NCBI GenBank assembly: GCA_964590105.1
Contig: CAZPYM010000001.1
Location: 236,746 to 300,745, forward strand
Reading direction: 5' to 3'
Origin: an uncultured Gammaproteobacteria bacterium
GTDB taxonomy: Bacteria; Patescibacteriota; Patescibacteriia; UBA11705; JABHMO01
DNA length: 64,000 bases
The translations under genes were made by a program, and so were the position numbers. How positions within the stretch are numbered: the first letter of the stretch is position 1; the number at the start of each line of letters is the position of its first letter. Positions 1 to 16,066 of this stretch are shown here, piece by piece. Below the pieces are notes generated by a model. The model had not been told where the DNA came from. It made no database searches and worked only from the letters and a program-made list of their open reading frames with translations.

Positions 1-1118
1 TTTATATTTTATTAAAGTTTGTTATCCCGCACATTGATAGAATTTTTGCGGAAAACAAAGAAATGCTATTTATTTTTTCAATCGGCAGTTGCTTTGCTAT
101 TGCTTCAATCTTTTATAAACTAAATTTTTCTTTGGAGTTGGGCGCGCTGGCAGCCGGTGTTATTTTGTCAGTTTCACCGTATCAGCGAGAGATTGCTCTA
201 CGCATGCAGTCATTGCGGGATTTCTTCCTGATAATTTTCTTTGTAGTTATGGGCGCTAATGTTCACGCCGGAGATATTCAAAATTCATGGCCTTTAATTA
301 TTGCTTTTTCCTTGTTTATTTTAATTGGTAATCCGATAATTTTGATTTTGGTAATGCGCTGGCTTAATTATACTTTAAAGACCAGTTTTCTGGCTGGACT
401 TACTGTTTCCCAAATCAGCGAATTTTCATTAATTATCATTGGCATGGGCGTGGGGCTCGGCCATCTGCCAAAAGAAATTTTAGCGCCGGCTACAGTTGTC
501 GGAATCATTACAATTACAGTTTCAACATATTATATTACTTATAACCATCAAATTTATAAAATTTTTCAGGCGCCTTTGAGCAAGATTTTTTCCGACAAAA
601 ATCGCAACAAAGAGATTATAGAAATGCCTGAGAAATATGATGTTATTTTATTTGGTTCGCATCGTTTAGGAGGAGGCCTTGTCAAGCAGATGATAAAAAT
701 GAAAATGAAATTCTTGGTGGTTGATCATGATCCTGAGGTTATTCGTGTATTAACAACAAAAAAAATTGCATGTTGGTATGGTTCTGCTGATGATCCATCC
801 TTGATTGACAGTTTACCCTTGGCTGATACCCATCTGGTTATTTCCACTATTCCCGAATTGGACGTCAATCTGACATTGCTCGCGCATGTGAAAAGGGGAC
901 ACAGAAAAATGAATGTTTTGTGTATTGCTAATCAAGTTTCTGACGCGAAAAAATTATACAAAGCCGGCGCTGCCTATGTGATTATGCCGCCATATCTTGG
1001 CCGTCGGTTTATGGTGGATCTGCTGAGGAAAAACAGGTTGAATCATGATAAGTATCGGGAAGAAAGGGAAAAACATATTACCGACTTGCCATATTTAGAC
1101 GATGCGGAATTTTTGTAA
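1..1118 (+). CDS. Cation:proton antiporter-like membrane protein with C-terminal RCK/TrkA-N NAD-binding domain (5'-partial)
   Basis: Reading frame is open to the window start. Hydrophobic TM segments are followed by a Rossmann-like 'VILFGSHRLGGGLVKQM...FLVVDHDPE' RCK domain. Confidence 0.55.
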   Translation, partial: YILLKFVIPHIDRIFAENKEMLFIFSIGSCFAIASIFYKLNFSLELGALAAGVILSVSPYQREIALRMQSLRDFFLIIFFVVMGANVHAGDIQNSWPLIIAFSLFILIGNPIILILVMRWLNYTLKTSFLAGLTVSQISEFSLIIIGMGVGLGHLPKEILAPATVVGIITITVSTYYITYNHQIYKIFQAPLSKIFSDKNRNKEIIEMPEKYDVILFGSHRLGGGLVKQMIKMKMKFLVVDHDPEVIRVLTTKKIACWYGSADDPSLIDSLPLADTHLVISTIPELDVNLTLLAHVKRGHRKMNVLCIANQVSDAKKLYKAGAAYVIMPPYLGRRFMVDLLRKNRLNHDKYREEREKHITDLPYLDDAEFL

Positions 1119-1126
1119 ATTGGCAT

Positions 1127-1155
1127 TTGACAAAATTTATGCTGTTTTCTATAAT
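1127..1155 (+). promoter_or_regulatory. Sigma70-type consensus promoter TTGACA-N17-TATAAT
   Basis: Perfect -35 TTGACA (1127-1132) and -10 TATAAT (1150-1155) with a 17-nt spacer, upstream of the leader ORF, tRNA-His and hisS. Confidence 0.6.
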
Positions 1156-1163
1156 CAATTTAT

Positions 1164-1211
1164 ATGATAATAATTCACGAAATCCATCATATTCACGAAT
1201 GTCCGCGCTAG
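1164..1211 (+). CDS. Candidate His-rich leader peptide (MIIIHEIHHIHECPR, 15 aa), attenuator-type
   Basis: ATG at 1164 is about 9 nt after the -10 box. Four His codons (CAC/CAT) occur in 15 codons and the stop is TAG. It lies immediately upstream of a terminator hairpin and the tRNA-His-hisS genes. No SD is present, so it would be leaderless. Confidence 0.4.
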   Translation: MIIIHEIHHIHECPR

Positions 1212-1242
1212 CTGGTCATTGATTAAGTTAAAAATAAATCAA

Positions 1243-1264
1243 GCCAGCGCAAGCTGGCCTTTTT
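1243..1264 (+). terminator. Intrinsic terminator/attenuator hairpin GCCAGC-GCAA-GCTGGC + CTTTTT
   Basis: Perfect 6-bp GC-rich stem with a GNRA loop and a T-tract. It sits between the promoter/leader ORF and tRNA-His. An upstream GCGCTAGCTGGT segment (1205-1216) can alternatively pair with the 5' arm. Confidence 0.55.
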
Positions 1265-1338
1265 GCAGGATCATGAAAAGACAAATTTACAGAATTCCTA
1301 TCCTTGCCCCTTGTTCCTTATTCCTTGTCCCTAATTCA

Positions 1339-1416
1339 TGGTGGATGTAGCTCAGTTGGTAGAGCATTGGCTTGTGGCGCCAATGGCCGCGGGTTCAAGT
1401 CCCGTCATCCACCCCA
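1339..1416 (+). tRNA. tRNA-His (anticodon GTG) with encoded G-1 and encoded 3' CCA
   Basis: Cloverleaf by eye: G-1 plus GTGGATG acceptor pairing with CATCCAC and C73; D-arm TAGCTCAGTTGGTAGAGC; anticodon stem TTGGC/GCCAA with loop TTGTGGC; T-arm GCGGG TTCAAGT CCCGT; CCA at 1414-1416. Confidence 0.9.
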
Positions 1417-1534
1417 TTCCTTTTTCTCTTTATTAAAAGATAAAAAGGAAAATTACAAATCACAAATTACAAACTCAAAGAAAACCTAAAGCCTAAAACT
1501 CAGAAAATCAACAAATTCAAAATAAATTTCAAAT

Positions 1535-2836
1535 ATGAAAAACGAAGCATTGCAAATGGCCAGAGGAGTACGCGATTTCGGGCCGGAAGAAAAAATTGCG
1601 CGCGATAAAATTGTTACTACATTAAAGCAAGTATTTGAATCTTTTGGCTACAACCCAATTGAAACTCCGGTTTTGGAACGATATGAATTATTCGCTTCCA
1701 AGTTTGGAATTGGCCAGGAGTCTGATGCTATGCGAGAAACTTTCAAATTAAAAGATCAGGGGAATCGAGATATTGTTTTGCGAACTGAATTTACAGTTCC
1801 GTTTTCAAGGTTTGTCGGCATGAATCCGCAATTCAAAAAACCATTCAAAAGATATCAGATAGGACAAGTTTTCCGCGACGGACCGATCAAGCTAGGCCGC
1901 TATCGTGAATTTTGGCAGTGTGATGTGGATGTGGTGGGGATTGGTAGTCCGCAGATTGACGCTGAAATCATTCAGTTGACTGTCGAAGCTTTTGCCAAAT
2001 TGGGAATGGAAATCGAATTTCGTTTGAATAACCGAAAAATATTAAACGAAATATTAAAATATGCCGGAATAACAGGAGAGCAGCAAATCTCAGCTATCAT
2101 TGCGATTGACAAACTTGATAAAATTGGAGTTGACGGCGTGAAAGAAGAATTAAAAGAAAAACAGATTGCCGGATCCGCAGTGGACACTATTTTAAAATTA
2201 ATTTCCATCGAAGGAAATAATCAGGGAAAAATTGTTCAGTTGCGAGATGTGTTGTCGGAAGTTGCCGGCTTGGATGAAGTCGAACAGGCCTTGGCTTTTG
2301 TTATTGACAATCAAAATGTGTTTTTCGTGCCTTCTCTGGCGCGCGGATTGGCATATTATACCGGAAATGTTTTTGAGGTTTATTTGAAGGATAGCTCGAA
2401 AATCAGTTCTTCTATTTGCGCCGGTGGCAGATATGACGATATGATCGGCGGATTTTTAGGAACTAATGAGGTTTATCCGGCAGTTGGGATCAGCTTTGGG
2501 CTCGAAACAATTTTTGATGCCATAAAATTAAATCAAAACAATGATGATGTTGTGAAATCAGTTACAGATGTATATTTGTTGGCGTTGGATGATAAATATG
2601 TTAAGAAAATCATGAACATTGCGAAACAACTGCGCCAAGCGGGAATTAAGGCGGATATGGATTATCTGGGACGCAAACTGAAAAAGAATTTAGAATATGC
2701 TGATAGTTATGGCGTCTCATGGGTGATAATGCTGGGAGAAAGTGAAGAAGTTGAGAATAAACTTATGCTGAGGAATATGAAAACCGGCGAACAGGAAAAA
2801 TTGTCAGTTGACCAAATTATTGAAAAATTGCGATAA
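1535..2836 (+). CDS. hisS: Histidyl-tRNA synthetase (class II), archaeal/eukaryal-like type
   Basis: N-terminal 'ARGVRDFGPEE'; 'FKLKDQGNRDIVLRTEFTVPFSRFVGMN'; motif 2 'RYQIGQVFRDGPIKLGRYREFWQCDVDVVG'; C-terminal anticodon-binding domain. 433 aa. Confidence 0.9.
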   Translation: MKNEALQMARGVRDFGPEEKIARDKIVTTLKQVFESFGYNPIETPVLERYELFASKFGIGQESDAMRETFKLKDQGNRDIVLRTEFTVPFSRFVGMNPQFKKPFKRYQIGQVFRDGPIKLGRYREFWQCDVDVVGIGSPQIDAEIIQLTVEAFAKLGMEIEFRLNNRKILNEILKYAGITGEQQISAIIAIDKLDKIGVDGVKEELKEKQIAGSAVDTILKLISIEGNNQGKIVQLRDVLSEVAGLDEVEQALAFVIDNQNVFFVPSLARGLAYYTGNVFEVYLKDSSKISSSICAGGRYDDMIGGFLGTNEVYPAVGISFGLETIFDAIKLNQNNDDVVKSVTDVYLLALDDKYVKKIMNIAKQLRQAGIKADMDYLGRKLKKNLEYADSYGVSWVIMLGESEEVENKLMLRNMKTGEQEKLSVDQIIEKLR

Positions 2837-2994
2837 ATATTGTTACAAAAAATTAGCCAAATTAAGGCTATTTTTTTGTTGTTCTGAACCAATATTTAAT
2901 CTTGATAATTTTTTGGTAAATTAGTGTTGACATGTGGATAAAAAAAAGGTAAGAATTAAATAATAAGTGCAAATAAATATTTAATACAAAGAAT

Positions 2995-4551
2995 ATGATT
3001 ACTTCTGAACAATTATTGGTATTGACAGGTGAAACGTTAAGCATCAATGATATTGTCGATGTTGCGCGTCATAAACGCATGAAGGTTATTATTAGTGAAG
3101 AAACAAAAAGTAAAATGCAAGCTTCCCGAGATTATGTGGCTAAAGTCGCAAATGAAAAAAGAGTTGTCTACGGCGTCACCACTGGTTTCGGAAAATTTAA
3201 AAATGTTGTTATTGCGCAGGATCAATTGTGTCAAATGCAAGAAAATTTAATTATGAGCCACGCTGTGGGCGTGGGTGAGCCGCTCAAAGAAGAAGAAGTC
3301 AGAGCGGCTGTTTTAGTCAGGGCAAATTCTTTGGTAAAGGGTTATTCTGGTGTGAGAATCGAATTGGTTGAAAAACTGCTTGAATTGGTCAATGCGGATA
3401 TTTACCCTTATGTTCCCTGCAAAGGATCAGTCGGCTCAAGCGGCGATTTGGCTCCATTGTCGCATATTATGTTGGTAATTCTTGGTATGGGTGAAGTGAT
3501 AGAAGGCGGCCAGAGAAAACCAAGCAATGAAGTATTGGCAAGGCTTGGGATTCAACCAATCAAGCTGGTGGCAAAGGAAGGCCTGGCGCTTATTAATGGT
3601 ACTTCAGTAATGACAGGTATCGCGGCCTTAGCAATTTTTGACGCAGAATTATTGACCCAAATGGCGGATATCTCCGGCGCAATGACACTTGAGGCTACTA
3701 TGGGTACGGTTGCTGCTTGTCATCATATGGTCCATTTAGCGAGACCTCATATTGGACAGCAAACTGTCGCTGAAAATATTCGTAGGCTATGCGCGGATAG
3801 CGCAATCGGTTATTCACATCGAAACTGTGATCGCGTGCAAGACGCTTATTCTCTTCGTTGTATGCCACAGGTGCATGGGGCTGTCAGGGATTCACTTCGA
3901 CATATTCGATCAGTAGTTGAAATAGAATTAAATTCCGCCACGGATAATCCTTTGATATTTCATGATTATGATTTAATTATTTCTTGTGGAAATTTTCACG
4001 GCGAACCAATTGCTTTTGTCATGGATTATCTTGGAATTGTTATTGCTGAGCTCGGAAATATTGCCGAGCGTCGGATTTGTCGGATGGTTGATCCGGCGAC
4101 CAGCGAAGGTTTGCCGGCGTTTCTTATTCCGCATGAACAGGCCGGCCTTAGCAGCGGTTACATGATTTCTCACTATACGGCGGCCGCAGTAGTTTCAGAA
4201 AATAAAATTTTGGCTCATCCTGCTAGCGTTGATTCGATTCCGACATCAGCAAACCAGGAAGATCATGTCAGTTTTGGAACAATTGCCGCCAGAAAAGCTA
4301 GACAAATTATTGAAAATGTATATGAAGTGATTGGAATTGAATTGATGAGCGCGGCGCAGGGGCTGGATTTTCATAAACCTTTGCTTCCCGGCCTTGGTTG
4401 TCAGGCGGCCTGGGAAATGATCCGTCAGTTTGTGCCATTTTCAGAAAAGGACAAAATTTTATATCAAGATATGCAGACTATCAGAAAAGAAATAATGCTT
4501 GACGGCAAAATTGTTCAGCATGTTGAGCAGAGGATCGGCAAATTGAGTTAA
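2995..4551 (+). CDS. hutH: Histidine ammonia-lyase family (MIO-dependent aromatic amino-acid ammonia-lyase/aminomutase)
   Basis: 518 aa. Signature 'GSVGSSGDLAPLSH' corresponds to the HAL 'GSVGASGDLAPLAH' MIO motif, with Ser-Ser-Gly in place of Ala-Ser-Gly. The protein shows similarity to HAL throughout. Confidence 0.8.
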   Translation: MITSEQLLVLTGETLSINDIVDVARHKRMKVIISEETKSKMQASRDYVAKVANEKRVVYGVTTGFGKFKNVVIAQDQLCQMQENLIMSHAVGVGEPLKEEEVRAAVLVRANSLVKGYSGVRIELVEKLLELVNADIYPYVPCKGSVGSSGDLAPLSHIMLVILGMGEVIEGGQRKPSNEVLARLGIQPIKLVAKEGLALINGTSVMTGIAALAIFDAELLTQMADISGAMTLEATMGTVAACHHMVHLARPHIGQQTVAENIRRLCADSAIGYSHRNCDRVQDAYSLRCMPQVHGAVRDSLRHIRSVVEIELNSATDNPLIFHDYDLIISCGNFHGEPIAFVMDYLGIVIAELGNIAERRICRMVDPATSEGLPAFLIPHEQAGLSSGYMISHYTAAAVVSENKILAHPASVDSIPTSANQEDHVSFGTIAARKARQIIENVYEVIGIELMSAAQGLDFHKPLLPGLGCQAAWEMIRQFVPFSEKDKILYQDMQTIRKEIMLDGKIVQHVEQRIGKLS

Positions 4552-4567
4552 ATAAAGATAATTAAAA

Positions 4568-4593
4568 AAGACTCCGATGAAGGAGTCTTTTTT
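4568..4593. terminator. Bidirectional intrinsic terminator AAGACTCC-loop-GGAGTCTT + TTTT
   Basis: 8-bp stem flanked by an A-run and a T-run, between the convergent HAL (+) and M20 (-) genes. Confidence 0.6.
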
Positions 4594-4648
4594 GATGATA
4601 TAAAATGCGAGAACATGAGTTAATCCAAGGTCGTATATTCGGAGGAGT

Positions 4649-5824
4649 TTAAGGTGTTCCACAGTAGTGCTGAATTATTGCGGAATATATGTCCCGCGTA
4701 ACTTCAAGAGAGTCAATGTCGACCCACTCATTAGGTTTATGGGCGTTGTCACCCAATGGCCCCAAATTAACAACGGGAATGCCGAATTTTTCTTGCAAAA
4801 ATTGTCCGTCGCCAAAACCTTTGTCCGCGCCATCCGCGTATTGCGCATTTTTACCGCTAATAGTTGCTATTGCCTTTTCGACAACTTGAATCTTTTCCGG
4901 AGCTGTATAAAGTGCCCCGAAGTCGTGTGCTATCTTGGTTTCTAATCGACAACCAAACCTTGTTTGCGCTAGTGCTACCATTTTTGCAGCCAGGATTTTT
5001 CCATTTATATCCGGCGAATTGGTGCGTATGTCAATAACACATTCAGCGTAATCGGCAATCATATTGCCCTGTTGTCCTATTTTAATTTTCCCGCCAGAAT
5101 CCGTTCCCTTATTAATACCGCCATGTAATGAAGACAGATTAAGGGTTGTTAAGCCGAGAGTTTGATGTGGCGTTGCTTCTTCAAATTCTGTTCGAAGAAA
5201 ATCGATTGTTTGATATAGCGCATCAATTGCATTATTTCCTTCTTTCGGATTTTTGGCATGACCGGTTTTTCCGAACATTTGTAAATGTATTTCAACAATG
5301 CCGCGATGAGCATTCCATATCTCGAGATCGCTCGGTTCTGCAATCATTGCTAATTCTGGTATGCCATTTTCTTCTGGATACTCAGCTAGGAACTTTTTCA
5401 TTCCGGCAAAATCGTATTCTTCGTCGCAATAAAAAAGCACAAACAATCCTTCTGCCTTTTGCAGTAAGGAAATTGCGTCCATGATAGCGGCGCACCCACC
5501 TTTCATATCATAAGCGCCTAATCCGTAAAAACGAGTGCCCTCAATTCTTCCGGCTATAGGATCGCCTTGCCAGCCTTCTTGCCGAGGGACAGTGTCTAGA
5601 TGTCCGCCAAGAAAAAGTCGGGGTTTACCGGGAGTAGTTGCGATTACATTGAATCTACCACTGTTGCCGATTGGTTGCTTTTGCACTTTAAGAAATTTAA
5701 ACTTGACAAGGTATTGGTAAACAAACTCGGCTAGCTGTCGTTCATCAGCGTTTTCTCCCACAAAACTAGGTATGGCAACTAAATTTTGCAGAAGCATAAA
5801 TGTGGAATTTTGTTTGATTGACAT
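4649..5824 (-). CDS. M20 family metallopeptidase (ArgE/DapE/N-acyl-amino-acid deacylase type)
   Basis: 'GGHLDTVP', 'GLGAYDMKGG' and 'CDEE' metal-binding motifs. 391 aa. SD AAGGAGG lies upstream of the start. Confidence 0.8.
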   Translation of the reverse strand: MSIKQNSTFMLLQNLVAIPSFVGENADERQLAEFVYQYLVKFKFLKVQKQPIGNSGRFNVIATTPGKPRLFLGGHLDTVPRQEGWQGDPIAGRIEGTRFYGLGAYDMKGGCAAIMDAISLLQKAEGLFVLFYCDEEYDFAGMKKFLAEYPEENGIPELAMIAEPSDLEIWNAHRGIVEIHLQMFGKTGHAKNPKEGNNAIDALYQTIDFLRTEFEEATPHQTLGLTTLNLSSLHGGINKGTDSGGKIKIGQQGNMIADYAECVIDIRTNSPDINGKILAAKMVALAQTRFGCRLETKIAHDFGALYTAPEKIQVVEKAIATISGKNAQYADGADKGFGDGQFLQEKFGIPVVNLGPLGDNAHKPNEWVDIDSLEVTRDIYSAIIQHYCGTP

Positions 5825-6029
5825 AGAGACCTCCTTATGTTAAAGACCTAATTTAATTTTACCTTTTTTAATTTAAATGTCAAATACAATGTTTATAGTT
5901 GTTGCTTGTTTGCTTGAGTGATTCATTAAATTTATGCACAACTTGATTTGACATTTTTAAAATTAGTCGTGTAAACTAAAGATGATTCTGTCGGGTACTT
6001 TTACAATTTAGTTTAAGGGAGGTGCGGAA

Positions 6030-7595
6030 ATGCAAAGATTGAAATATGCAAAATTGATACCAGGTGGCAATACTACAATCATTATTTTTGACCAAGTGCC
6101 ACGCAAGCATCAAGCACTGCTTGCGCGAACGATTATGGAACAGCATTCGGACTGTGAACAGGTAGGGTTTGTTGAACCTGCGAGTGGCAACTCTAAGGCA
6201 ATTTGTCGTTTGCAAATGATGGGTGGCGAGTTCTGTGGCAATGCCACACGATGCCTGACTTGGCTCGTCGCGGGCCATTATTTGCATCATGGCGATACCT
6301 GCAATGCCGAAATCAAGAATCAACTATTTGGTTCAGTTTGCAGATCTTCGGGTTCAACTACGGGCGACAATGAAGATACTAATAACCAGCAGGTTCTGGC
6401 AATGGAAGTCTCCGGTGCCGGGTATATTCTTGAAGCTAAATATTTGATTGATTCATCGGGTAAAGTGGATGATGTTATCGTCCCGATGCCGATCCGGTTC
6501 GTGCCGGCGGATTGTTTGAAACAATCTCAGTTGTTCTGGAATGAAAACGAAATGACTGTTACCATTGTTCATCTGGATGGAATTAGCCACGTAATTGTGG
6601 ATTCTAACAGATTTTCCGAAATCGGTGGTGATCCGGGGAATTTGTTGGAAACCAAACATATCTTGGCATCATTCGGCCTGGAGCAGTTAGAGGCGGCAGG
6701 TGTTATTTTCACGAGACAAGTTGGTGATTCTGTCGCCATAGTGCCGGTTGTTTATGTTCGTGAAACCGATACCTTGATTCTGGAAACCGCTTGTGGTTCA
6801 GGTACTGTAGCTTTGGCACAGAAAATTGCTTTTGAAAAAGGCGAAAGCGTTTTTGTAAAAATCATTCAGCCCAGCGGCGAAACCATCGCTGCACGTGTTG
6901 AAATGTTGAATGGAATGTTTGAATCCGCTTCTATCATGGGCAAGGTCAATATCTGTGAAGAAGGCGTAATTTCTATTCCTAATGAAGACAATCCTCTTGC
7001 GAAGGTTGAGCTTCAACAAATCAAGAGACCGGAAGAACTTGAGCCTTATGCCGACCAGGTAGGATCTTTGTATGCCCGAGTTTTTGCCGACGCACCATAC
7101 TATGAACGATTTACTCCTGAAGAGGGGTATGGCTATCTGCTGGAGATTGCAGCTGCTAACCATGGACTTTTGTTTCTGGCTTTTGATGGTGACGATGTGG
7201 TGGGTTTTGGCGGTGGTTTACCGCTGACATATGACTCGGACATTTGCAAGGTGGTAAATGGTTGCCTTAAACAGGAACGCGCTTTCTATATCGCTGAGCT
7301 CGGCGTGGATCATTGCTACCGCGGTTTGGGCTTGAGCCATGAGTTAATTAATTCCTGTCATAGGGCTATTGACCAAGAACAGTTCGATCAGGTGCTAGTG
7401 AGAACTTCAGTGGCGAATAACGCCACTCTGCACCTGTTTCGCGATCGGCGTGATTTTAGCGTTATTGCCAACGTGCGCCAGCAAGTGGTCAACCGCAAGT
7501 TCCTGCCAGGCGCCACGGAGCCGCAGGATGTTCCTGATGAGCGGCTGTTCCTTGTCCGTACAGTCAAGTCTGCCAAGCAGAACTTGGCAACTTAG
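6030..7595 (+). CDS. Fusion protein: DapF/PhzF-fold PLP-independent amino-acid racemase/epimerase (N-terminal) + GNAT N-acetyltransferase (C-terminal)
   Basis: N-terminal 'IPGGNTTIIIFDQ' resembles DapF GNDFxxVD. First catalytic-Cys motif is 'MMGGEFCGNATRC'; second is 'LETACGSGTVALA'. C-terminal (~aa 330-521) GNAT motif 'YRGLGLSHEL'. SD AAGGGAGG. GC-rich. Confidence 0.65.
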   Translation: MQRLKYAKLIPGGNTTIIIFDQVPRKHQALLARTIMEQHSDCEQVGFVEPASGNSKAICRLQMMGGEFCGNATRCLTWLVAGHYLHHGDTCNAEIKNQLFGSVCRSSGSTTGDNEDTNNQQVLAMEVSGAGYILEAKYLIDSSGKVDDVIVPMPIRFVPADCLKQSQLFWNENEMTVTIVHLDGISHVIVDSNRFSEIGGDPGNLLETKHILASFGLEQLEAAGVIFTRQVGDSVAIVPVVYVRETDTLILETACGSGTVALAQKIAFEKGESVFVKIIQPSGETIAARVEMLNGMFESASIMGKVNICEEGVISIPNEDNPLAKVELQQIKRPEELEPYADQVGSLYARVFADAPYYERFTPEEGYGYLLEIAAANHGLLFLAFDGDDVVGFGGGLPLTYDSDICKVVNGCLKQERAFYIAELGVDHCYRGLGLSHELINSCHRAIDQEQFDQVLVRTSVANNATLHLFRDRRDFSVIANVRQQVVNRKFLPGATEPQDVPDERLFLVRTVKSAKQNLAT

Positions 7596-7608
7596 AAATT
7601 TGAAAGCT

Positions 7609-7639
7609 CACTCCAGTGATAACGCTGGAGTGTTTTTTT
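7609..7639 (+). terminator. Intrinsic terminator CACTCCAG-loop-CTGGAGTG + T7
   Basis: 8-bp perfect stem followed by TTTTTTT, directly after the stop of the 6030-7595 gene. Confidence 0.7.
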
Positions 7640-7805
7640 GTTTTATGTTAAGCTTATTAAGGATGAATTCATAGAAAATCACATAAATTTTCTTAAAAAA
7701 TATGTAAAAATTGGTTATGAAATAAGCATAATGTTTGCATAAGTTGTAAGAACTTTGTTTTATATTTAAATATTTAAATATTTAAATAATTTAAGACAAG
7801 TTTAT

Positions 7806-8906
7806 ATGAAAATAAAATCAATCAAAGCAATTCCCGTTTTCTTTAAATTGTTTAAACCCTTTATTTTTTCAGGAGTGAAATTAGAGATTTTGGATTATGT
7901 TTTGGTAAGAATAGAAACAAATGATGGTGCTGTCGGGTTTGGTGAGTGTCCGGTGTACTGGGAGCCAAGAGGCGAGACTCAGATATCCACTCTTGAGGAC
8001 ATTGAAAAGGTTAAGCCATATTTATTGGGGTTGCGAGCTGATGATGTCGAGGCACGATTGGAAATTTTTCAAAAATATATTCCGCGGGCCTATGCTGCTC
8101 AATGTGGTCTAGATTTGGCGATGTACGATGCTACTGGAAAAACTTTAAATTTGCCTGTTTATAAATTTTTTGGTGAAGCTAAACCAATACCGGTGGATGT
8201 GGTCATTCCTATGATGGGAAAAAATGAGGCAGAGCCGATTATAAATAAATCCCTGTCAGAACAGGTTAAAGTATTTAAAGTAAAAGTTGGTCAAGATATT
8301 GAAAATGAGGTTGAGTTGCTAAAAATGATCAGAGGAAAAATCGGATCAGAGTTATTAATTTATGTTGATGCCAACCAGGGCTTTAAGAGTGTTGACGATA
8401 CAGTGAGTTTTATAAAAAGGATAGTTGATCTAGATATTGCCTGGATAGAACAGCCATTGCCTGCATCGGCTCCACTCGAGGAATTTATACAATTAAAAAA
8501 ACAGTTGCCAATCAAAATAATGTTGGATGAGTCGGTTTATACTTTTGAAGATGTGGAATTGTTTGCCGGGAATGAAGCTTGTGATATGTTTAATATTAAA
8601 CTGGCTAAGAGCGGCGGGATTTCCGGGGCAATTAAATTTTTTGAAGTGGCGGAAAAATTTGGCAAAGAATGCATGTTGGGGTCAATGATAGAAGGGGCTT
8701 CGGGCACTTTCGGCGGCGCACATTTTGCCAGTACTCATCAAATGATAATAACCGCATTGACGGCTTATAGGTTTATTGATGATGAATTGGCTTTTGGTCC
8801 TAAAATTAAATCTAGTTTAATGGAAGTCCCTGAAAAACCCGGATTAGGGTGCGAAAAAGAAGAACTATTTCAAAAGAGGTTCGATGATTTTTCGGATATA
8901 ATATAA
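7806..8906 (+). CDS. Enolase-superfamily racemase/epimerase (dipeptide epimerase or N-acyl/N-succinyl-amino-acid racemase-like)
   Basis: MR/MLE-family pattern: N-terminal capping domain 'VLVRIETNDGAVGFGE'; KxK 'KVKVG'; metal ligands 'DANQG', 'EQP' and 'MLDES'; second base 'IKLAKSGG'. Confidence 0.7.
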   Translation: MKIKSIKAIPVFFKLFKPFIFSGVKLEILDYVLVRIETNDGAVGFGECPVYWEPRGETQISTLEDIEKVKPYLLGLRADDVEARLEIFQKYIPRAYAAQCGLDLAMYDATGKTLNLPVYKFFGEAKPIPVDVVIPMMGKNEAEPIINKSLSEQVKVFKVKVGQDIENEVELLKMIRGKIGSELLIYVDANQGFKSVDDTVSFIKRIVDLDIAWIEQPLPASAPLEEFIQLKKQLPIKIMLDESVYTFEDVELFAGNEACDMFNIKLAKSGGISGAIKFFEVAEKFGKECMLGSMIEGASGTFGGAHFASTHQMIITALTAYRFIDDELAFGPKIKSSLMEVPEKPGLGCEKEELFQKRFDDFSDII

Positions 8907-9032
8907 TTGCAAAAACATGGCAATATGTGTTAATTATTATTTTTGAAATTCGACTTGACTTTCAAATTGTTTATTGTAAGATAAAGTCGAAAGATAAGTT
9001 ACTATTGTTGTTTACAACCAAAGGGGGACGCC

Positions 9033-10433
9033 ATGGACCAAGAAAAACTTTTACCGCGCGTTTTAAGCGGATTTCGAGATTATCCGCCGGAACAGGTACG
9101 GGCAAGGGATTTGATGATGGACAAGATCAGGCGGACATTCGAGCTGTTTGGTTTTGATCCGCTCGATACCACGACTGTGGAATTCTTGGAAATTCTTACT
9201 GGCAAAATGCCGGGCTGGGATCAGATGGGCTTGTACACTCTTGACAGTTCGATTGAAAGACGGATTGATCGGGGAGATGAAGAAACATTTTGGCTCAAGA
9301 AAACCGGCTTGCGATTTGATCTGACTGTTTCGCTTGCTCGGTATGTTGCGGCCAATCTGGATACTCTACCGCGCCCGTTCAAGCGCTATCAGCTTGGCAA
9401 GGTTTACAGGGCAGAAAGCCCTCAGGAAGGCCGCTATCGCGAGTTTTTCCAGTTTGACGCGGACACCATGTTTGCGCCGAATGTTGTAGCTGACGCAGAA
9501 ATCATCGCGCTCATGGTTGAAACCATGCTGGCGCTGGATCTGCCGCGCTCCATTGTAAAAGTAAATAATCGCAAAATCGCCGAAGGTCTTTCTTCATTGA
9601 TCGGCTTTGAGCCAAGACTTTTGAACGACGTTCTGCGCGTTCTTGACAAGCGCGACAAAGTTGGCCGCGAGGAAATGATCAGTGAGCTACGGCTTGAGCT
9701 TGGCGAAGAAGAAGATGGCAAAAGGGGCCTTGGGCTCGATGAAAAACAAGTGGAAACCCTGATGAACTTTGTCGAATTGCAAGGCGAATTGTCCGACAAA
9801 CTGGCATTTTGCCGAAATTTGTTCAAGGGCATTGAAATCGCCGAGAACGGATTTGATGAACTGGAAAGAATCGCTGAATACCTGAGAGCCATGGGTGTTG
9901 AGCCGGCAATGTGGGAAGTGGACTTTTCCATTGTCCGCGGGCTGGCGTACTACACCGGCCCGGTATTTGAAACGCAATTGCTCGACTTGCCTGAAATCGG
10001 CAGCGTATTTTCCGGTGGGCGGTTTGACAATCTGGTATCACGTTTTTCCAGTGCCAAAGTGCCTGGCACCGGCGCATCAGTGGGCGTTGACCGATTGCTT
10101 GCGGCCTTGCTGAAGCTTGAGAAAATCAAACTGACGCCGACTTGTGTGCAATGCCTGGTCATGGCGCTAACCAGTGATTTGACTGCTGAAATGGCAGTTT
10201 TGGGGCAACTGCGGCGAGCTGGCATCAATGCCATGATCTACACTGGCTCAGATATGTCTTTCAAGGCCCAGTTTGTCAGGGCAGTGAAGTTCAATGTGCC
10301 CTATATAATGATCCTTGGTGACAAGGAATTGGCTGACGGCACTGTAACGGTGCGCGATCTCGCTACTCGCGCCCAGGTAACCATTGCCCGAGATCTTCTC
10401 GTGGAATATTTCAGAGACAAAGGTATGGCTTGA
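9033..10433 (+). CDS. hisS: Second, divergent histidyl-tRNA synthetase paralogue (full length, with anticodon-binding domain), GC-rich
   Basis: 'FRDYPPEQ'; 'LRFDLTVSLARYVAAN'; motif 2 'RYQLGKVYRAESPQEGRYREFFQFDAD'; motif 3 region 'GGRFD'; C-terminal anticodon-binding domain. 466 aa. SD AAGGGGG. About 50-57% GC by inspection against ~33% locally. Confidence 0.8.
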   Translation: MDQEKLLPRVLSGFRDYPPEQVRARDLMMDKIRRTFELFGFDPLDTTTVEFLEILTGKMPGWDQMGLYTLDSSIERRIDRGDEETFWLKKTGLRFDLTVSLARYVAANLDTLPRPFKRYQLGKVYRAESPQEGRYREFFQFDADTMFAPNVVADAEIIALMVETMLALDLPRSIVKVNNRKIAEGLSSLIGFEPRLLNDVLRVLDKRDKVGREEMISELRLELGEEEDGKRGLGLDEKQVETLMNFVELQGELSDKLAFCRNLFKGIEIAENGFDELERIAEYLRAMGVEPAMWEVDFSIVRGLAYYTGPVFETQLLDLPEIGSVFSGGRFDNLVSRFSSAKVPGTGASVGVDRLLAALLKLEKIKLTPTCVQCLVMALTSDLTAEMAVLGQLRRAGINAMIYTGSDMSFKAQFVRAVKFNVPYIMILGDKELADGTVTVRDLATRAQVTIARDLLVEYFRDKGMA

Positions 10434-10480
10434 CAAGATTTTATAAATAAGGTAACGTGAAGTCGCCGATAGTGGCGCAC

Positions 10481-10554
10481 GGGTACGTAGCTCAGTTGGT
10501 TAGAGCAACGGATTGTGGCTCCGTAAGTCGCGGGTTCGATTCCCGTCGTACCCC
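10481..10554 (+). tRNA. tRNA-His (anticodon GTG), second copy; C at -1 (no encoded G-1), C73, no encoded CCA
   Basis: Acceptor GGGTACG/CGTACCC; D-arm TAGCTCAGTTGGTTAGAGC; anticodon stem ACGGA/TCCGT with loop TTGTGGC; T-arm GCGGG TTCGATT CCCGT. Base -1 is C, and CTT follows C73. Confidence 0.85.
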
Positions 10555-10561
10555 CTTCAAT

Positions 10562-10594
10562 CGAGCGGAAGAACATCTTCCGCTCGTTTTCTTT
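10562..10594 (+). terminator. Intrinsic terminator CGAGCGGAAG-loop-CTTCCGCTCG + TTTTCTTTT
   Basis: 10-bp perfect stem and T-tract immediately after tRNA-His-2. It closes the hisS2-tRNA-His2 unit. Confidence 0.75.
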
Positions 10595-10668
10595 TAAATA
10601 ATAACAGCTTGACTTTTTTTTCAAAGGTGATTAAATATAAATATAATGACAAATAAGATTTTCAGCAT

Positions 10669-11499
10669 ATGAAAGGCGAATATTTAATCTGTTTGGAGGT
10701 TGACAATACACTGCTCGATAGAAATTATCGCGCCACTTCGCCGACCATAAATTCGGTTATCAATCAGCTGTCGGCAGAAGGACATATTTTTATTTTGAAC
10801 TCAAACAGAGCGCTGGAAGACTTGTTGTCAATAGCGAAAATTTTTGAAATTGCCGGTCCGGTTATCGGCGAAAATGGCACCTTTATTTATTATCAGGATT
10901 TGGGAAAAACCGAAACTTTAATTGATGATGCTGTCTTGGGTCAGATTGAGCAAATTAAAAATGCAATTCCAGGTCTGATAAACAGTTATTTTCCGGAAGC
11001 AATGTTTCAAATCGGCGATACGACTGATATCAATAAGCACCTGGATATTCAAGAAATTCCGCGCGACAAAAAACTTTTGTTTTTCATGAATGAATTCCGT
11101 AGATACACTATTAGTATACACGTAAAGAAAATTGAAAACGGAGTGTTGAGCAAAGACATTACAACTGCAGGCAAACTGTGCGGTTTAATTGCTGAATACA
11201 TTGAAAAAAATAAAATGTCTTTGCGCGCAAGTTATACAGAATCATATGCCAATGTTCTGGTTTGCCCGACAACTACTGACAAGACCAGGGCGTATAATTA
11301 TTTGGTCCAAAAATTCCCGAAACATTTGCGGATATTTATTGCGGATGACGCCGATGACAAACCTGTGACTGGAGGCGATTACTTATTCGTCGTGAATAAC
11401 GCCACTCAGGAAGCAAAAAACATGGCAAATTATGTTTCACTTGAAAATATAACCAAGGGAGTGGAAGATATTTTATTAAAAATGGATAGATTAATATGA
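10669..11499 (+). CDS. HAD-superfamily (Cof-like) hydrolase, variant motif I (EVDNT)
   Basis: N-terminal 'LICLEVDNTLLD' aligns to the HAD DxDxT motif with Glu at the nucleophile position. The C-terminus has a 'DDADD'-like acidic motif. 276 aa. Confidence 0.45.
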   Translation: MKGEYLICLEVDNTLLDRNYRATSPTINSVINQLSAEGHIFILNSNRALEDLLSIAKIFEIAGPVIGENGTFIYYQDLGKTETLIDDAVLGQIEQIKNAIPGLINSYFPEAMFQIGDTTDINKHLDIQEIPRDKKLLFFMNEFRRYTISIHVKKIENGVLSKDITTAGKLCGLIAEYIEKNKMSLRASYTESYANVLVCPTTTDKTRAYNYLVQKFPKHLRIFIADDADDKPVTGGDYLFVVNNATQEAKNMANYVSLENITKGVEDILLKMDRLI

Positions 11500-12056
11500 G
11501 AAAATATCAAATCGGAGTCATGGGTTCGGCCGCTGATTTAAAATATGAAAAAGAATTGGAAAAAATCGCCGAAACAATTGGCCGGCTTATTGCCGAAAAC
11601 GGGCATACAACAGTTTACGGCGCTGAAAAAGACTATGATTCTCTGTCAACAGCGGCGGCCCGGGGCGCAAAAGCTGCCAATGGATTGACTGTTGGTGTTA
11701 CTTATGGCCGAGGAAAAGATATTTGGGACAAAAATGATAATACGGATGTGATCATTTGCAGCGGACTAGAAAGAGGCGGCGGCAGAGAATTTGTTTTAGT
11801 TAATAGTTGCGACGCGTTAATTGCGGTAAGCGGCGGATCCGGTACGTTGAGCGAGCTTGCAATTGCTTATCAGTTGGATATTCCCTGCATAGTGATTGAA
11901 AATACTGGCGGTTGGTCTGATAAATTAGCCGGACAATTTCTTGATCAGCGAAGCAGACGAAAAATAATTGGAGCAAAAAGCGCAGAAGAAGCAGTGGCAA
12001 AAATATTGGAAATTCTTCAAAACGAAATAAATAGTCCTTCGAAGTCTGCTAAGTAG
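11496..12056 (+). CDS. LOG/TIGR00725-family Rossmann-fold protein
   Basis: 'GVMGSA...' N-terminus and 'SGGSGTLSELAIAY' (PGGxGTxxE-like) motif. 186 aa. Confidence 0.5.
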   Translation: MRKYQIGVMGSAADLKYEKELEKIAETIGRLIAENGHTTVYGAEKDYDSLSTAAARGAKAANGLTVGVTYGRGKDIWDKNDNTDVIICSGLERGGGREFVLVNSCDALIAVSGGSGTLSELAIAYQLDIPCIVIENTGGWSDKLAGQFLDQRSRRKIIGAKSAEEAVAKILEILQNEINSPSKSAK

Positions 12057-12062
12057 TAAGTC

Positions 12063-12098
12063 GCGAGTGGTGAGTTAAACTAATTACTCACCACTCGC
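12063..12098 (+). terminator. 13-bp perfect hairpin GCGAGTGGTGAGT-N10-ACTCACCACTCGC (terminator-like, weak T-tract)
   Basis: Perfect inverted repeat directly after the LOG gene stop. Confidence 0.45.
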
Positions 12099-12158
12099 CA
12101 CTTATTAATTTATTGAGTTTATATATCATAGTTCATTGAAAGTAATAATGGAGGGAGC

Positions 12159-13238
12159 ATGACTGAAATAGCAGGGAAGCTCGAGGGAACTGGCAGAAAC
12201 AAGTACCTGGTTTCCGGTGATTTGCGAGTCATAGTCGGAAGATGGCTTGGGTCAAAGGGACCATTTTTTCTGCCCGACAAAAAATTGTTTGAATCTTTGC
12301 AATCAGCAGTAGTCGAAAAGTTGGAGGAAATATTCCAGCCTCGCGGGGTGGATGTGGTTTATTTGCCGTGGGATCACCTTAAAACCGGAATCCTACTGCA
12401 TATTGCCAATCACGCGGGCGATGTACCGGTTGTATCGCTGGATCAGGTCTATGTTGAAGAGGGCACCGCTGATATATATCTTGATGCAAATCGCATAGTC
12501 AAATGGTCAAAGCACACTGAAGGTGTTGATTGGCGGCAGGGATGGAGTGAAATTGGCCACGGACCTCGGCGTTCTGACTATGGAATCGCTTCGCAGCTTG
12601 AGCGTATTGTCAATCAGGGACGTATAAAGCGCATGCAGGACAAAAGAGTCGTGGTGGTGGATGACGGCACCTGGACAAGAGGGTCTCTTATTGCAGCGAA
12701 AAACCTTTTGGCAAGCGTCGGGATACGAGTTGATAAGTTTATAGTTGGAATTGAAATCAGATCAGGAACTGAAAAAGATGAAACCTTTGAAATCCCGTTT
12801 TTGTGGGTTGAAAAGTTTTGCAAGGAAGCTGTGGTTGACTGGGTTGGCGAAAGGGATTTTTTCCCAGGAGTCGGGTTTTCCGGCAGAACAGTAGGAGAAT
12901 TGATTGAAAATAACACTGAACCGGCGACGTTTCGACAGTTTTATATTTCCATGCCGATGGAAGGTAATTATGGCGCGCCGTATGTCATGCCGCTTGGTGA
13001 TCCAGTGACCTGGGCTAATGTCCCAGAAAAAAAGGCAATTGAATTTTCAATGTTCTGTCTTGACTGCGCAATTCAGCTTTATACCGCAATTGAAGCGGAA
13101 ACTCGCAGGATTACCGGACAATCCATCAAAATAAAAGTCAGTCATCTCGAACGACCGCCGTATTTTTACAGAAAGATCAAAGACATGCCGGTGACAGAAG
13201 CTCTGGCCAGCTCAAGAAAAATCTTGGAAAACATTTAA
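12159..13238 (+). CDS. Hypothetical protein with phosphoribosyltransferase-like motif, GC-rich
   Basis: 'RVVVVDDGTWTRGSL' resembles the type I PRTase PRPP-binding loop. No other recognisable family. 359 aa. Confidence 0.35.
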   Translation: MTEIAGKLEGTGRNKYLVSGDLRVIVGRWLGSKGPFFLPDKKLFESLQSAVVEKLEEIFQPRGVDVVYLPWDHLKTGILLHIANHAGDVPVVSLDQVYVEEGTADIYLDANRIVKWSKHTEGVDWRQGWSEIGHGPRRSDYGIASQLERIVNQGRIKRMQDKRVVVVDDGTWTRGSLIAAKNLLASVGIRVDKFIVGIEIRSGTEKDETFEIPFLWVEKFCKEAVVDWVGERDFFPGVGFSGRTVGELIENNTEPATFRQFYISMPMEGNYGAPYVMPLGDPVTWANVPEKKAIEFSMFCLDCAIQLYTAIEAETRRITGQSIKIKVSHLERPPYFYRKIKDMPVTEALASSRKILENI

Positions 13239-13250
13239 TTAATTGCAAAT

Positions 13251-13276
13251 GAAGCGTGCTACACGCTTCTTTTTTG
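13251..13276 (+). terminator. Intrinsic terminator GAAGCGTG-loop-CACGCTTC + T6
   Basis: 8-bp stem plus TTTTTT directly after the stop at 13238. Confidence 0.7.
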
Positions 13277-13307
13277 TAACATTTTAGTTTTTTGCTCGTC
13301 ATAATAT

Positions 13308-13335
13308 TTGACAGACAAATATATTTGCTTATAAT
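13308..13335 (+). promoter_or_regulatory. Consensus promoter TTGACA-N16-TATAAT
   Basis: Exact -35 and -10 hexamers. It lies upstream of a structured ~150-nt leader that ends in a terminator. Confidence 0.55.
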
Positions 13336-13342
13336 GAATACA

Positions 13343-13489
13343 TATGGCCTTGCAAAACAGTAATAATTCATGGGAAAAGAAATACCGCAAACACGCAGAC
13401 TGCAGACTGTTTTGTATGGAAAAATTCTGATCGACGTCTAAAATAAGTTTACATACAAAACAGCTCGACATGGCTGTTTTCTTTATTTT
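13343..13489 (+). ncRNA. Candidate cis-regulatory leader / small RNA with mutually exclusive 12-bp stem and terminator
   Basis: CTGTTTTGTATG (13406-13417) is a perfect inverted repeat with CATACAAAACAG (13451-13462). The second arm overlaps the terminator stem ACAGC-N8-GCTGT + TTTTCTTTATTTT (13459-13489). A tandem GCAGACTGCAGACTG lies upstream of the first arm. Confidence 0.35.
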
Positions 13490-13658
13490 ACGAGATAGCT
13501 TTAATACATAGGACAAATATGCAAAGCAAAATTCCCAACAATCAATTATTGCGTCCGGCCGGAACCAACATGACGGATTGCTTTGTGTTTTTAACTCATA
13601 TTATAAACAGAAATCAGTCCATCATGGGCTGATTTCATTGTTTCAAAAGGAGGAAGTC

Positions 13659-14168
13659 ATGGAAAAATCACAGCTTCGCCAGGCAAATGGTCAGGATCTG
13701 ATACACATGGAAGAAATTTTTCAGCTGATTTTTGAAGAAAATCGGAAAAGTTTGATGGCTTACAAAGAGCGGGAAGAATTAAAAGCGGAGATAGTAAACG
13801 GCCAAGCGTTCCTGCTTTTTTTGGACGAAATCCTGGTAGGCTATTGCTCATACAAAATTTGGCAGTCGTGCATCGAAATCATGAGTCTGGTTTTGCGGGC
13901 AAAATATCGACAGCGCGGATATGGATTTACGCTTTGCTATTACGTGGTAAATCTGGCAAAAGAACTTTGGCCCGACAAACTGATTTTGGCCTTGCCAAAT
14001 GACAATTCAGTTGGAATTCTACAGAAGTGTGGTTTTGTAGAGTTTCCAAAAGTGGAATTACCCGATGAGTTGCGGCAGTCATGTGCAGGTTGTCTTGAGT
14101 ATAATGATTTTCCTGACTGCCATTGTCAAACCTTGCGTTTGCCTGGAAAAATTAAAACAATGAAATAA
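13659..14168 (+). CDS. GNAT family N-acetyltransferase with Cys-rich C-terminal tail
   Basis: SD AAAGGAGGA then ATG at 13659. 'QRGYGFTL' acetyl-CoA binding motif. C-terminal 'CAGCLEYNDFPDCHC'. Confidence 0.6.
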   Translation: MEKSQLRQANGQDLIHMEEIFQLIFEENRKSLMAYKEREELKAEIVNGQAFLLFLDEILVGYCSYKIWQSCIEIMSLVLRAKYRQRGYGFTLCYYVVNLAKELWPDKLILALPNDNSVGILQKCGFVEFPKVELPDELRQSCAGCLEYNDFPDCHCQTLRLPGKIKTMK

Positions 14169-15342: not shown

Positions 15343-15432
15343 AAATTCTTTAAGTATGCGGTGCAATATTCAATGCATTATTAATAAGAAAAAGAGCTGT
15401 GATTAGGACAGTTCGGCTTTAAGTTTGAATAA

Positions 15433-15462
15433 AGAGCCGAGCTGTTCGCCCGGCTCTTTTTG
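15433..15462 (+). terminator. Intrinsic terminator AGAGCCG-loop-CGGCTCT + TTTTTG
   Basis: Hairpin plus T-tract between the M20 gene and the following GNAT gene. Confidence 0.5.
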
Positions 15463-15490
15463 TTTCCAAGCAAATCAACCGGAGGAAAAA

Positions 15491-16018
15491 ATGCAACAAC
15501 AAATCCAATTACTGCACAGTTCTGAAGAATTTCGGCTGGTGCATTTGGCCGACACGTTCATGGAGTTATCGGAACGCTTCAAGCAAGAGGAACATTTGCT
15601 TGGCAAAGAACCCGAAGAGCTGATGAGGCAGTTTTTAAACGGCCTGTCAGTGGTGGCTTTCAGCGGTTTTCAAATCGTCGGCCATTTAACGCTTTGGCAT
15701 TTAGAAGGCGACTGGTATGAATCCGGCTCCATCTGGGTGCATCCGCGGGCCAGACGCGAAGGTTTGGCCACAATGCTAAAGAAAGAGCTGGTCAGACGCA
15801 GTCCGCATTTCAATGTTCTTTCCACTACCACCAATAGCGTGGTCATGCGCATGAATGGCTCTCTGGGAATTCCGGAACTCGATTTTTGGGAATTGCCGCT
15901 GGAAATCCATAGCGCTACTTGTATTTGTTCCGCTGAAAAAATGCAGGCCGACTGCTTTCACGATTGCCGATTGAAAAATCAGCAATGCAGATTGTTCGTG
16001 CGACGGCGCCTGGAATAA
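15491..16018 (+). CDS. GNAT-like acetyltransferase, GC-rich
   Basis: SD GGAGG then ATG (MQQQIQLL...). 'VGHLTLWHLEGDWYESGSIWVHPRARREGLATML' resembles the GNAT core. Start trimmed from ORF 15425 because of the upstream terminator and SD. Confidence 0.5.
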   Translation: MQQQIQLLHSSEEFRLVHLADTFMELSERFKQEEHLLGKEPEELMRQFLNGLSVVAFSGFQIVGHLTLWHLEGDWYESGSIWVHPRARREGLATMLKKELVRRSPHFNVLSTTTNSVVMRMNGSLGIPELDFWELPLEIHSATCICSAEKMQADCFHDCRLKNQQCRLFVRRRLE

Positions 16019-16034
16019 ATTGCACAAACAAAAA

Positions 16035-16066
16035 ACCGTCCTTATCGTTGAGGACGGTTTATTTTT
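16035..16066. terminator. Bidirectional terminator ACCGTCC-N10-GGACGGT flanked by A6 / T-run
   Basis: Lies between the convergent genes 15491-16018 (+) and 16059-16862 (-). Confidence 0.7.

Follow-up and report, generated by a model that had tools for sequence, protein, structure and literature searches.

Within a 64-kb stretch of genomic DNA from an uncultured member of the Patescibacteriota, or Candidate Phyla Radiation (CPR), we examined two genes for histidyl-tRNA synthetase (HisRS), each of which is linked to its own tRNA-His(GUG) gene. The stretch, hereafter the window, comprises 64,000 nucleotides (positions 236,746 to 300,745 of contig CAZPYM010000001.1, at least 564 kb long, assembly GCA_964590105.1), and its source is probably a relative of Kuenenbacteria. 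A preliminary description of this DNA had reported two complete, divergent HisRS genes with their linked tRNA genes, and this is borne out by sequence, domain and ARAGORN/Rfam evidence. In pair 1 the tRNA gene (tRNA-His-1) encodes the G at position -1 that is regarded as among the most universal tRNA identity marks, and a predicted His-codon attenuator lies upstream; in pair 2 the tRNA gene (tRNA-His-2) encodes no G-1. We propose that the pairs form two HisRS/tRNA-His modules that have co-evolved, are probably orthogonal and stand under different regulation within one histidine island, a reading to which we give slightly better than even chances. Two tRNA identity rules would then probably coexist in one cell.

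Both tRNA genes were called with ARAGORN and with Rfam, the latter scoring them at 72.2 and 71.8 bits. For tRNA-His-1, nucleotide +1 was placed at 1341 and the acceptor stem (GTGGATG/CATCCAC) was found to be extended by a G-1 at 1340 facing C73 at 1413, followed by CCA at 1414-1416; the earlier assignment of the G-1:C73 pair and of the CCA was correct, but its start at 1339 was not. The register of tRNA-His-2 was set by U8/A9 and by a full-length match to Rfam model positions 1-71, which gave +1 at 10481, the acceptor stem GGGTACG/CGTACCC with C72, and C73 at 10554. Position -1 is a C (10480) and C73 is followed by CTT, confirming that neither G-1 nor CCA is encoded. The canonical bacterial arrangement, an encoded G-1 opposite C73, is hence present in tRNA-His-1 and absent from tRNA-His-2. 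The 47-nt spacing between the HisRS-2 stop codon and tRNA-His-2 and the strong terminator behind it were both seen as first described, and a comparable hairpin lies 3' of the tRNA gene in L003 (L-numbers denote related loci or lineages collected for comparison, which were searched with ARAGORN and phmmer).

A tRNA-His gene without an encoded G-1 is characteristic of the Caulobacter type, which tRNA-His-2 also resembles in its enlarged D-loop, with an extra nucleotide at 20a (9 nt versus 8 nt in tRNA-His-1); this extra nucleotide is found in most type-2 tRNAs. The Caulobacter-type A73 and U72 determinants are absent from tRNA-His-2 of the window, which has C73 and C72. Among the six lineages that carry both modules (the dual lineages: the window, L003, L083, L085, L167 and L168), C73 in tRNA-His-2 is confined to the window; the other five have A73, mostly with U-1, and G1-U72 occurs in L168 only. 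In Caulobacter the size of the D-loop acts as an antideterminant and a determinant between the two types of pair, and addition of U20a to the D-loop was needed for E. coli tRNA-His to become a substrate of the Caulobacter HisRS (PMC3064791).

The association between enzyme and tRNA types was tallied at positions -1 and 73 in 17 lineages with a HisRS-1-type neighbour and 18 with a CPR HisRS-2-type neighbour, L089 being re-registered by its U8. The tRNA-His beside the HisRS-1-type gene encoded G-1:C73 in 17/17 lineages, versus just 3/18 beside the HisRS-2-type gene, where the -1 base was C or U in 14/18 lineages and N73 was C or A. For the first 15 and 16 lineages, Fisher's exact test returned p ~4e-5. 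As these pairings recur across many independent lineages they are not due to chance, and the semi-orthogonal pair suggested in the preliminary description is plausible in so far as enzyme type predicts tRNA type. No HisRS-2 gene was found within 10 kb at locus L081, where each of the two tRNA-His genes belongs to the G-1 type.

Both enzymes are full length, with the PF13393 catalytic core, the C-terminal HGTP anticodon-binding domain PF03129 and the signatures LRxE/DxT, motif 2 fRxx..GRYREF, RGLxYY and GGR(Y/F)D. HisRS-1 and HisRS-2 scored 364.1 and 332.1 bits against TIGR00442 (HisS), above its cut-off of 286.75 bits, and 189.6 and 171.6 bits against TIGR00443 (HisZ), under its cut-off of 271.65 bits. 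Given these scores and the retained anticodon domain, a HisZ identity was rejected for either protein, which settles the possibility raised earlier for HisRS-2. Domain scans covered 46 open reading frames (ORFs) up to 57 kb of the 64-kb window, and no HisG domain was found among the ORFs scanned. The two proteins share 31% identity, the insertion already reported in HisRS-2 lying ahead of LRFDLT. They also differ at the class II motif-3 arginine (GxGxGx[DE]R), which HisRS-2 retains (GVDRL) together with a PQxGR motif-2 loop, while in HisRS-1 a Thr takes its place (GISFGLETI, encoded at 2480-2510). HisRS-1 is nonetheless probably active, because the remaining catalytic residues are invariant across its family (LRTEFT, FRD..GRYREF, RGLAYY and GGRYD in the family alignment). 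Neither enzyme contains a single His residue, the window proteins averaging 1.8% (chance probability ~4e-4 for HisRS-1 and ~2e-4 for HisRS-2). This avoidance is family-wide, the median number of His residues being 0 for HisRS-1 homologues and 1 for those of HisRS-2, and fits selection for making a synthetase without its own product.

The best genome matches of HisRS-2 were to CPR bacteria (Brenner-, Nealson- and Saccharibacteria, and Parcubacteria) at 39-46% identity, and in most of the CPR genomes matching it hisS is followed directly by tRNA-His, the gene order of pair 2. In a neighbour-joining (NJ) tree without support values, HisRS-2 of the dual lineages formed its own group next to the single-HisRS CPR clade, and HisRS-1 grouped with HisRS of DPANN archaea. 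Relatives of HisRS-1 in Kuenen- and Falkowbacteria and other CPR share 55-70% identity with it, and those in Woesearchaeota and Nanoarchaeota ~50%; among the metagenome matches listed identity was at most 51%, the closer lineages having been collected one by one. HisRS-2 thus appears to be a native-looking enzyme of the CPR/Patescibacteria clade and pair 2 a CPR-type system, while HisRS-1 is archaeal-like and was probably transferred.

Pair 1 is preceded by the elements of a His-codon attenuator (Table 1). Constrained folding predicted that a ribosome held at the His codons leads to the antiterminator (-15.4 kcal/mol) and a ribosome at the leader stop codon to the terminator at 1243-1264, and constrained folds predicted a switch of this kind for L083 as well. 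His-rich leaders were found in the window, L003, L081, L083, L167 and L168, those of the relatives having 4-6 His codons (e.g. MKKVTAIHHHHHHQ). Alignment of six lineages matched both the -35 TTGAC and the -10 box, the promoter boxes being invariant and their spacing to the ATG fixed; the CTGGT 3' of the leader stop is likewise conserved, and the terminator stems vary in sequence between lineages yet still pair. No promoter-like site was found between the attenuator terminator and tRNA-His-1. On the basis of the leader, the switch and the lack of a further promoter before tRNA-His-1, the model predicts that pair 1 is induced by shortage of His-tRNA. The classical his-operon and pheST attenuators offer a comparable combination of a short ORF of this type with alternative hairpins. 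A His-rich leader was absent before every HisRS-2 gene checked, and no T-box or other known riboswitch was found 5' of either hisS (Rfam, E<=1, positions 1-14000, where the two tRNAs and one microRNA match due to chance were all that appeared). The interval given in the preliminary description began at 1127, on the promoter, and the attenuator itself went undescribed there. Stress-specific charging, one of the roles it listed for an extra synthetase, is the best supported of its options, but applies to pair 1 through this attenuator and not to pair 2.

Many hisS loci of Clostridia were also seen to have short ORFs upstream whose products end in HHH or HHHH, e.g. MSSLRIKAKTLIHHHH (L037, L041, L047, L048, L052, L058, L059, L062-L064, L066, L067, L069, L071 and L079), which points to regulation of hisS by His leader peptides as a widespread trait beyond Proteobacteria.

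Based on these observations, we propose that module 2 (hisS-2, tRNA-His-2 and their terminator) would serve as a constitutive housekeeping pair, in which RNase P would leave an ordinary 7-bp acceptor stem on tRNA-His-2 and HisRS-2 would charge this tRNA via its anticodon, acceptor stem and enlarged D-loop, not via G-1, as in Caulobacter. Module 1 would be a second, inducible charging channel for a presumed histidine auxotroph that also catabolises histidine. When His-tRNA is ample, the ribosome would reach the leader stop codon and cover GCUGGU, and the terminator would form; when it is scarce, stalling at the four His codons would permit the antiterminator, and tRNA-His-1 and the His-free HisRS-1 would be made. 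More tentatively, with rather less than even confidence, we suggest that loss of G-1 is normal over much of the CPR and that a Kuenen-/Falkowbacteria-like group runs two orthogonal pairs of the same anticodon, holding the G-1 pair in attenuator-controlled reserve.

Pair 2 had at first been taken for a horizontally acquired oddity. In its strongest form this view would make it a recent foreign module with a special role, such as inhibitor resistance or supply of His-tRNA to a transferase, beside a native housekeeping pair 1, which we consider quite unlikely. HisRS-2 lies within the CPR clade, the CPR norm is a hisS gene with a G-1-less tRNA-His directly behind it (15/18 lineages), and synteny of both modules extends to at least six lineages of the CPR; on these grounds pair 2 is no odd import, and the archaeal-like enzyme is HisRS-1. 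Both pairs being normal throughout the lineage, a state that the preliminary description had named as contradicting its view, is mostly what was found. The compositional anomaly it reported does exist and, along with a strong Shine-Dalgarno (SD) sequence that most neighbouring genes lack, could signal a foreign origin: GC content at third codon positions (GC3) of the HisRS-2 gene is 0.55 versus a median of 0.36 (rank 2 of 52), GC is up at all three codon positions, and overall GC is 50% (400-nt windows 0.485-0.527), not the 50-57% first given, among neighbours at 36-40% and a window mean of 37.4%, not 33%. The codon-class analysis fits expression or foreign origin alike; moreover, the high-GC, SD-bearing class in relatives includes the unrelated genes M20, HAL and T2SSE, and the L085 HisRS-2 module shows no compositional anomaly. 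A recent import would also agree with the pattern of identities, as the near relatives of HisRS-2 are few, three clusters with ~63% identity to it, after which identity drops to 50% or less, against a smooth HisRS-1 gradient from 70% to 50%, and HisRS-2 of the dual lineages diverges faster (39-65% identity versus 56-67% for HisRS-1). The special roles found no such agreement. No FemAB, MprF, LF-transferase or CDPS domains were detected in the ORFs scanned, as in the Pfam lists of relatives, and the GNAT proteins of the window, on which the proposed link to a tRNA-dependent transferase rested, match Acetyltransf_1/7/10 models only, for which reason a Fem-like or other such transferase among them was rejected. 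No supporting evidence was found for self-resistance to an aminoacyl-tRNA synthetase (aaRS) inhibitor, and the conditional leader belongs to pair 1, not to pair 2.

Several points weigh against our own reading. The placement of both enzymes relies on an NJ tree that carries no support values, and the leader search in L085 found none. The charging partners and the mature 5' end of tRNA-His-2 are deduced from the genes, as are the other mature 5' end, the G-1 independence of HisRS-2, the mutual orthogonality and the constitutive nature of module 2. A second explanation is that of two redundant systems, with tRNA-His-2 gaining G-1 post-transcriptionally or keeping its N-1 and the two HisRS differing in regulation or kinetics only. 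We regard such redundancy as unlikely. A bacterial Thg1-like protein (TLP; PMC3061083) encoded beyond the window could use C73 of tRNA-His-2 as template for G-1 addition, but no Thg1 or TLP domain was found in the 46 ORFs scanned, a literature search linked no TLPs to the CPR, and templated addition opposite the A73 of the other dual lineages would yield U, not G. In four of these five (L003, L083, L167 and L168), U-1 may pair with A73 to make an eighth pair, which could shift RNase P cleavage so that the -1 base is kept. In both enzymes the arginines of GRYREF, which touch G-1 in known complexes (PMC4357726, PMC10100707), are kept, and the HisRS of A. pernix accepts A-1 or C-1 (PMC9976931). 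HisRS-1 retains a D-Q-G-x-R turn matching the one that forms the G-1 pocket in HisRS of T. thermophilus (PMC4357726). The D-x-G-G-R turn is absent from HisRS-2, and in its clade the pocket site is occupied by bulky or acidic residues or by a 10-18 aa insertion, in a loop of uncertain alignment. The nearest solved relatives of both enzymes, 6nhi and 3net (HisRS of Bacteroidetes and cyanobacteria), also lack the GG turn. Since Bacteroidetes and cyanobacteria use G-1 tRNA-His, the pocket argument is weak. The Q118 equivalent is in addition retained with N73 = A or C alike, and we take the GG turn and Q118 as suggestive of tRNA type, not diagnostic. It speaks against redundancy that the -1 base is free (C/U/G) in type-2 genes and always G in type-1 genes, and that enzyme and tRNA types are co-inherited, L081 with no HisRS-2 at its locus having G-1 tRNAs only. 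A third explanation starts from the missing motif-3 arginine of HisRS-1, whose activity cannot be assumed for this reason: the position is T/A/P/V in ~100/120 of the nearest HisRS-1 homologues, whereas 118/120 HisRS-2 homologues keep the arginine. HisRS-1, which directly adjoins histidine ammonia-lyase (HAL), or histidine decarboxylase (HDC) in L083, might accordingly be an impaired HisZ- or GCN2-like sensor that binds G-1 tRNA-His and regulates catabolic genes, with HisRS-2 doing all the charging. This is very improbable in our judgement, as no other catalytic or His-binding residue varies within the HisRS-1 family, the protein has an anticodon domain and scores as HisS and not as HisZ, its DPANN homologues are also without the arginine, islands with HisRS-1 only exist (L081, L169 and the P0153 contig), and an attenuator responding to His-tRNA shortage is sensible for a working synthetase.

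The features of the two modules and of the island are collected in Table 1. The common gene order of the island is Na/H exchanger, tRNA-His-1, HisRS-1, HAL, a variable stretch, HAD, SLOG, PRT-like, and GNAT/M20; urocanase and pyruvoyl HDC occur in some related lineages, HDC being the enzyme found in L083. The genes at 4649-8906 in the variable stretch of the window suggest N-acyl-D/L-histidine chemistry, and L003 has two small ORFs of no known family in their place. The 359-aa protein with a phosphoribosyltransferase (PRTase) fold belongs to a family of 26 matches, of which the few with organism names are CPR. Its AlphaFold2 model (pLDDT 80) has a type I PRTase-like core, the best Foldseek matches being APRT and OPRT; we considered it as a G-1-adding enzyme and rejected it, since the model resembles type I PRTases only and not the Thg1 fold.

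Table 1. Positions of the two HisRS/tRNA-His modules, the attenuator and the other genes of the histidine island in the window
Feature	Position	Strand	Remarks
Sigma-70 promoter TTGACA-17-TATAAT for leader, tRNA-His-1 and hisS-1	1127-1155	+	12/12 consensus positions
Leader ORF MIIIHEIHHIHECPR	1164-1211	+	4 His among 15 codons; ATG 8 nt 3' of -10 box, essentially leaderless
Antiterminator GCUGGU (1211-1216, overlaps stop):GCCAGC (1243-1248), with inner hairpin	1211-1248	+	constrained fold
Attenuator terminator GCCAGC-GCAA-GCTGGC + T run	1243-1264	+	predicted fold
tRNA-His-1 (GUG)	1340-1416	+	G-1 encoded, pairs with C73; 8-nt D-loop; CCA encoded
HisRS-1, 433 aa, archaeal (DPANN)-like	1535-2836	+	no His; no SD; D-Q-G-x-R turn present; motif-3 Arg absent (GLETI)
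Histidine ammonia-lyase (HAL, HutH)	2995-4551	+	TIGR01225 669 bits, cut-off 539; syntenic in relatives
M20 (ArgE/DapE-like) deacylase	4649-5824	-	at this position in window lineage only
CntK-like histidine-racemase N-domain/GNAT fusion	6030-7595	+	NF033599 82 bits (under cut-off); PF26317 CntK_N; window lineage only
Enolase-superfamily (MR/MLE) racemase/epimerase	7806-8906	+	window lineage only
HisRS-2, 466 aa, CPR-type	9033-10433	+	no His; strong SD AAGGGGGA at 9021-9028; GC3 0.55
tRNA-His-2 (GUG)	10481-10554	+	C-1 (10480), C73; 9-nt D-loop, extra nt at 20a; CCA not encoded
Intrinsic terminator closing hisS-2/tRNA-His-2 unit	10562-10596	+	11-bp stem (10562-10586), 7 GC pairs, then TTTTCTTTT
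HAD phosphatase	10669-11499	+	conserved in island, syntenic
SLOG/LOG-like protein	11496-12056	+	conserved in island, syntenic
CPR-restricted PRTase-fold protein, 359 aa	12159-13238	+	conserved in island, syntenic
GNAT	13578-14168	+	conserved, distal island end
ArgE/DapE-family M20 deacylase	14221-15342	+	conserved, distal island end
GNAT	15425-16018	+	conserved, distal island end

Extra tRNA-His genes were observed in the islands of three relatives (L003, 13568-13644; L081, 14167-14242; L082, 6145-6219). That of L003 has G-1:C73 and an A3-C70 mismatch and is without CCA, and those of L081 and L082 are a second canonical copy; the window has no tRNA-His at the equivalent site, 13239-13577. Fragments of tRNA-His, including insert-interrupted 5' halves and duplicated 3' ends, lie near the intact tRNA-His-1 in L083 (9440-9770), L167 (~9800-9900) and L169 (1-90), and are possible scars of integration or recombination. 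Integration of the island as an element flanked by a repeat of the tRNA-His 3' end was also considered, and was rejected because the 3' end of tRNA-His-1 occurs only once in the window.

Within the stretch 13239-13577, just 5' of a GNAT gene, lies another perfect promoter (TTGACA-16-TATAAT, 13308-13335), and downstream of it come an ORF of 28 codons and, at 13457-13480, a hairpin resembling a terminator; this element (13308-13490) may be a small RNA or a further leader. A palindrome at 12038-12123, between the SLOG and PRT-like genes, gave weak Rfam matches to MIR1523 on both strands (E 0.3-0.7) that are almost certainly due to chance. Window-wide, the genes were seen to fall into two classes, most being without an SD and having a GC3 of ~0.37, and a minority having a strong AAGGAGG-like SD and GC raised at all codon positions (e.g. 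4649-5824(-), 6030-7595, 9033-10433, 12159-13238, 16059-16862(-) and 27316-28101(-)); the same split is present in L081 and L083. Beyond the island, 17797-62098 holds a long same-strand cluster for cell-surface glycan, with glycosyltransferases, sugar epimerases/dehydratases, a flippase, a pyruvyl transferase, methyltransferases and several 460-560 aa ORFs without a Pfam match.

The reading of two co-evolved modules was compared with known systems. The nearest mechanistic analogue of pair 2 is the Caulobacter crescentus/alpha-proteobacterial pair (Wang 2007; Yuan 2011, PMC3064791), in which G-1 is not encoded, the D-loop is enlarged, and the HisRS is of a 'eukaryote-like' branch without the GG pocket motif; A73, its discriminator base, is present in most of the CPR relatives, and pair 2 is likewise predicted to be orthogonal to a canonical G-1 pair. 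Unlike the Caulobacter pair, tRNA-His-2 of the window retains C73 and C72, its enzyme lies in the CPR clade, and the system is known here only as genes. The presence of G-1-less and G-1 pairs together in one genome is also a difference, having been an engineering goal only for Yuan et al. (PMC3064791). The nearest functional analogue is the extra hisS of HDC islands in lactic acid bacteria (LAB; PMC5313534, PMC4122935), which shares with the window a second HisRS, catabolic genes, an adjacent tRNA, an M20 peptidase and, as predicted for pair 1, histidine-responsive expression, and for which the proposed role is to secure His-tRNA during histidine consumption. The LAB islands differ in using a T-box instead of a leader-peptide attenuator and in carrying HDC where the window has HAL (HDC being found in L083), and differing tRNA identity rules for the two enzymes have not been reported in LAB.

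For the attenuator, the closest parallel is the His leader predicted for Bacillus hisS* and hisZ (Naville and Gautheret 2010, PMC2965389), where a short His-codon ORF and alternative hairpins likewise accompany a duplicated hisS. Compared with the Bacillus and enterobacterial leaders, the CPR one is essentially leaderless, also governs a tRNA gene and is unrelated in sequence. Archaeal-type TyrRS and TrpRS of CPR bacteria (Mukai 2017, PMC5370408) offer a precedent for an archaeal-type aaRS that fits its tRNA identity, for two enzymes per amino acid (a bacterial-type TrpRS being present too in some) and for synthetases without their own cognate residue. The present case differs in that histidine is concerned, each enzyme is linked to its own tRNA gene, and it is the bacterial-lineage pair, not the archaeal-type one, that breaks the universal rule.

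A 2023 review of tRNA identity gives as exceptions to G-1 some alpha-proteobacteria, a few protists and C. elegans mitochondria, the CPR not being listed (PMC9976931), and our literature search, incomplete in its coverage, found no description of G-1-less tRNA-His or dual HisRS in CPR. If the proposal holds, a major bacterial radiation would largely encode tRNA-His without G-1, and a natural cell with both G-1 and G-1-less pairs would provide ready parts for genetic-code expansion. The HisRS-1 module offers a testable case of co-transfer of an aaRS with its tRNA between DPANN archaea and CPR bacteria. For the organisms themselves, the proposal would mean that genome-reduced auxotrophs shield translation from histidine shortage by means of His-free synthetases, an attenuator-gated spare pair, and the co-location of these with histidine salvage and catabolism.

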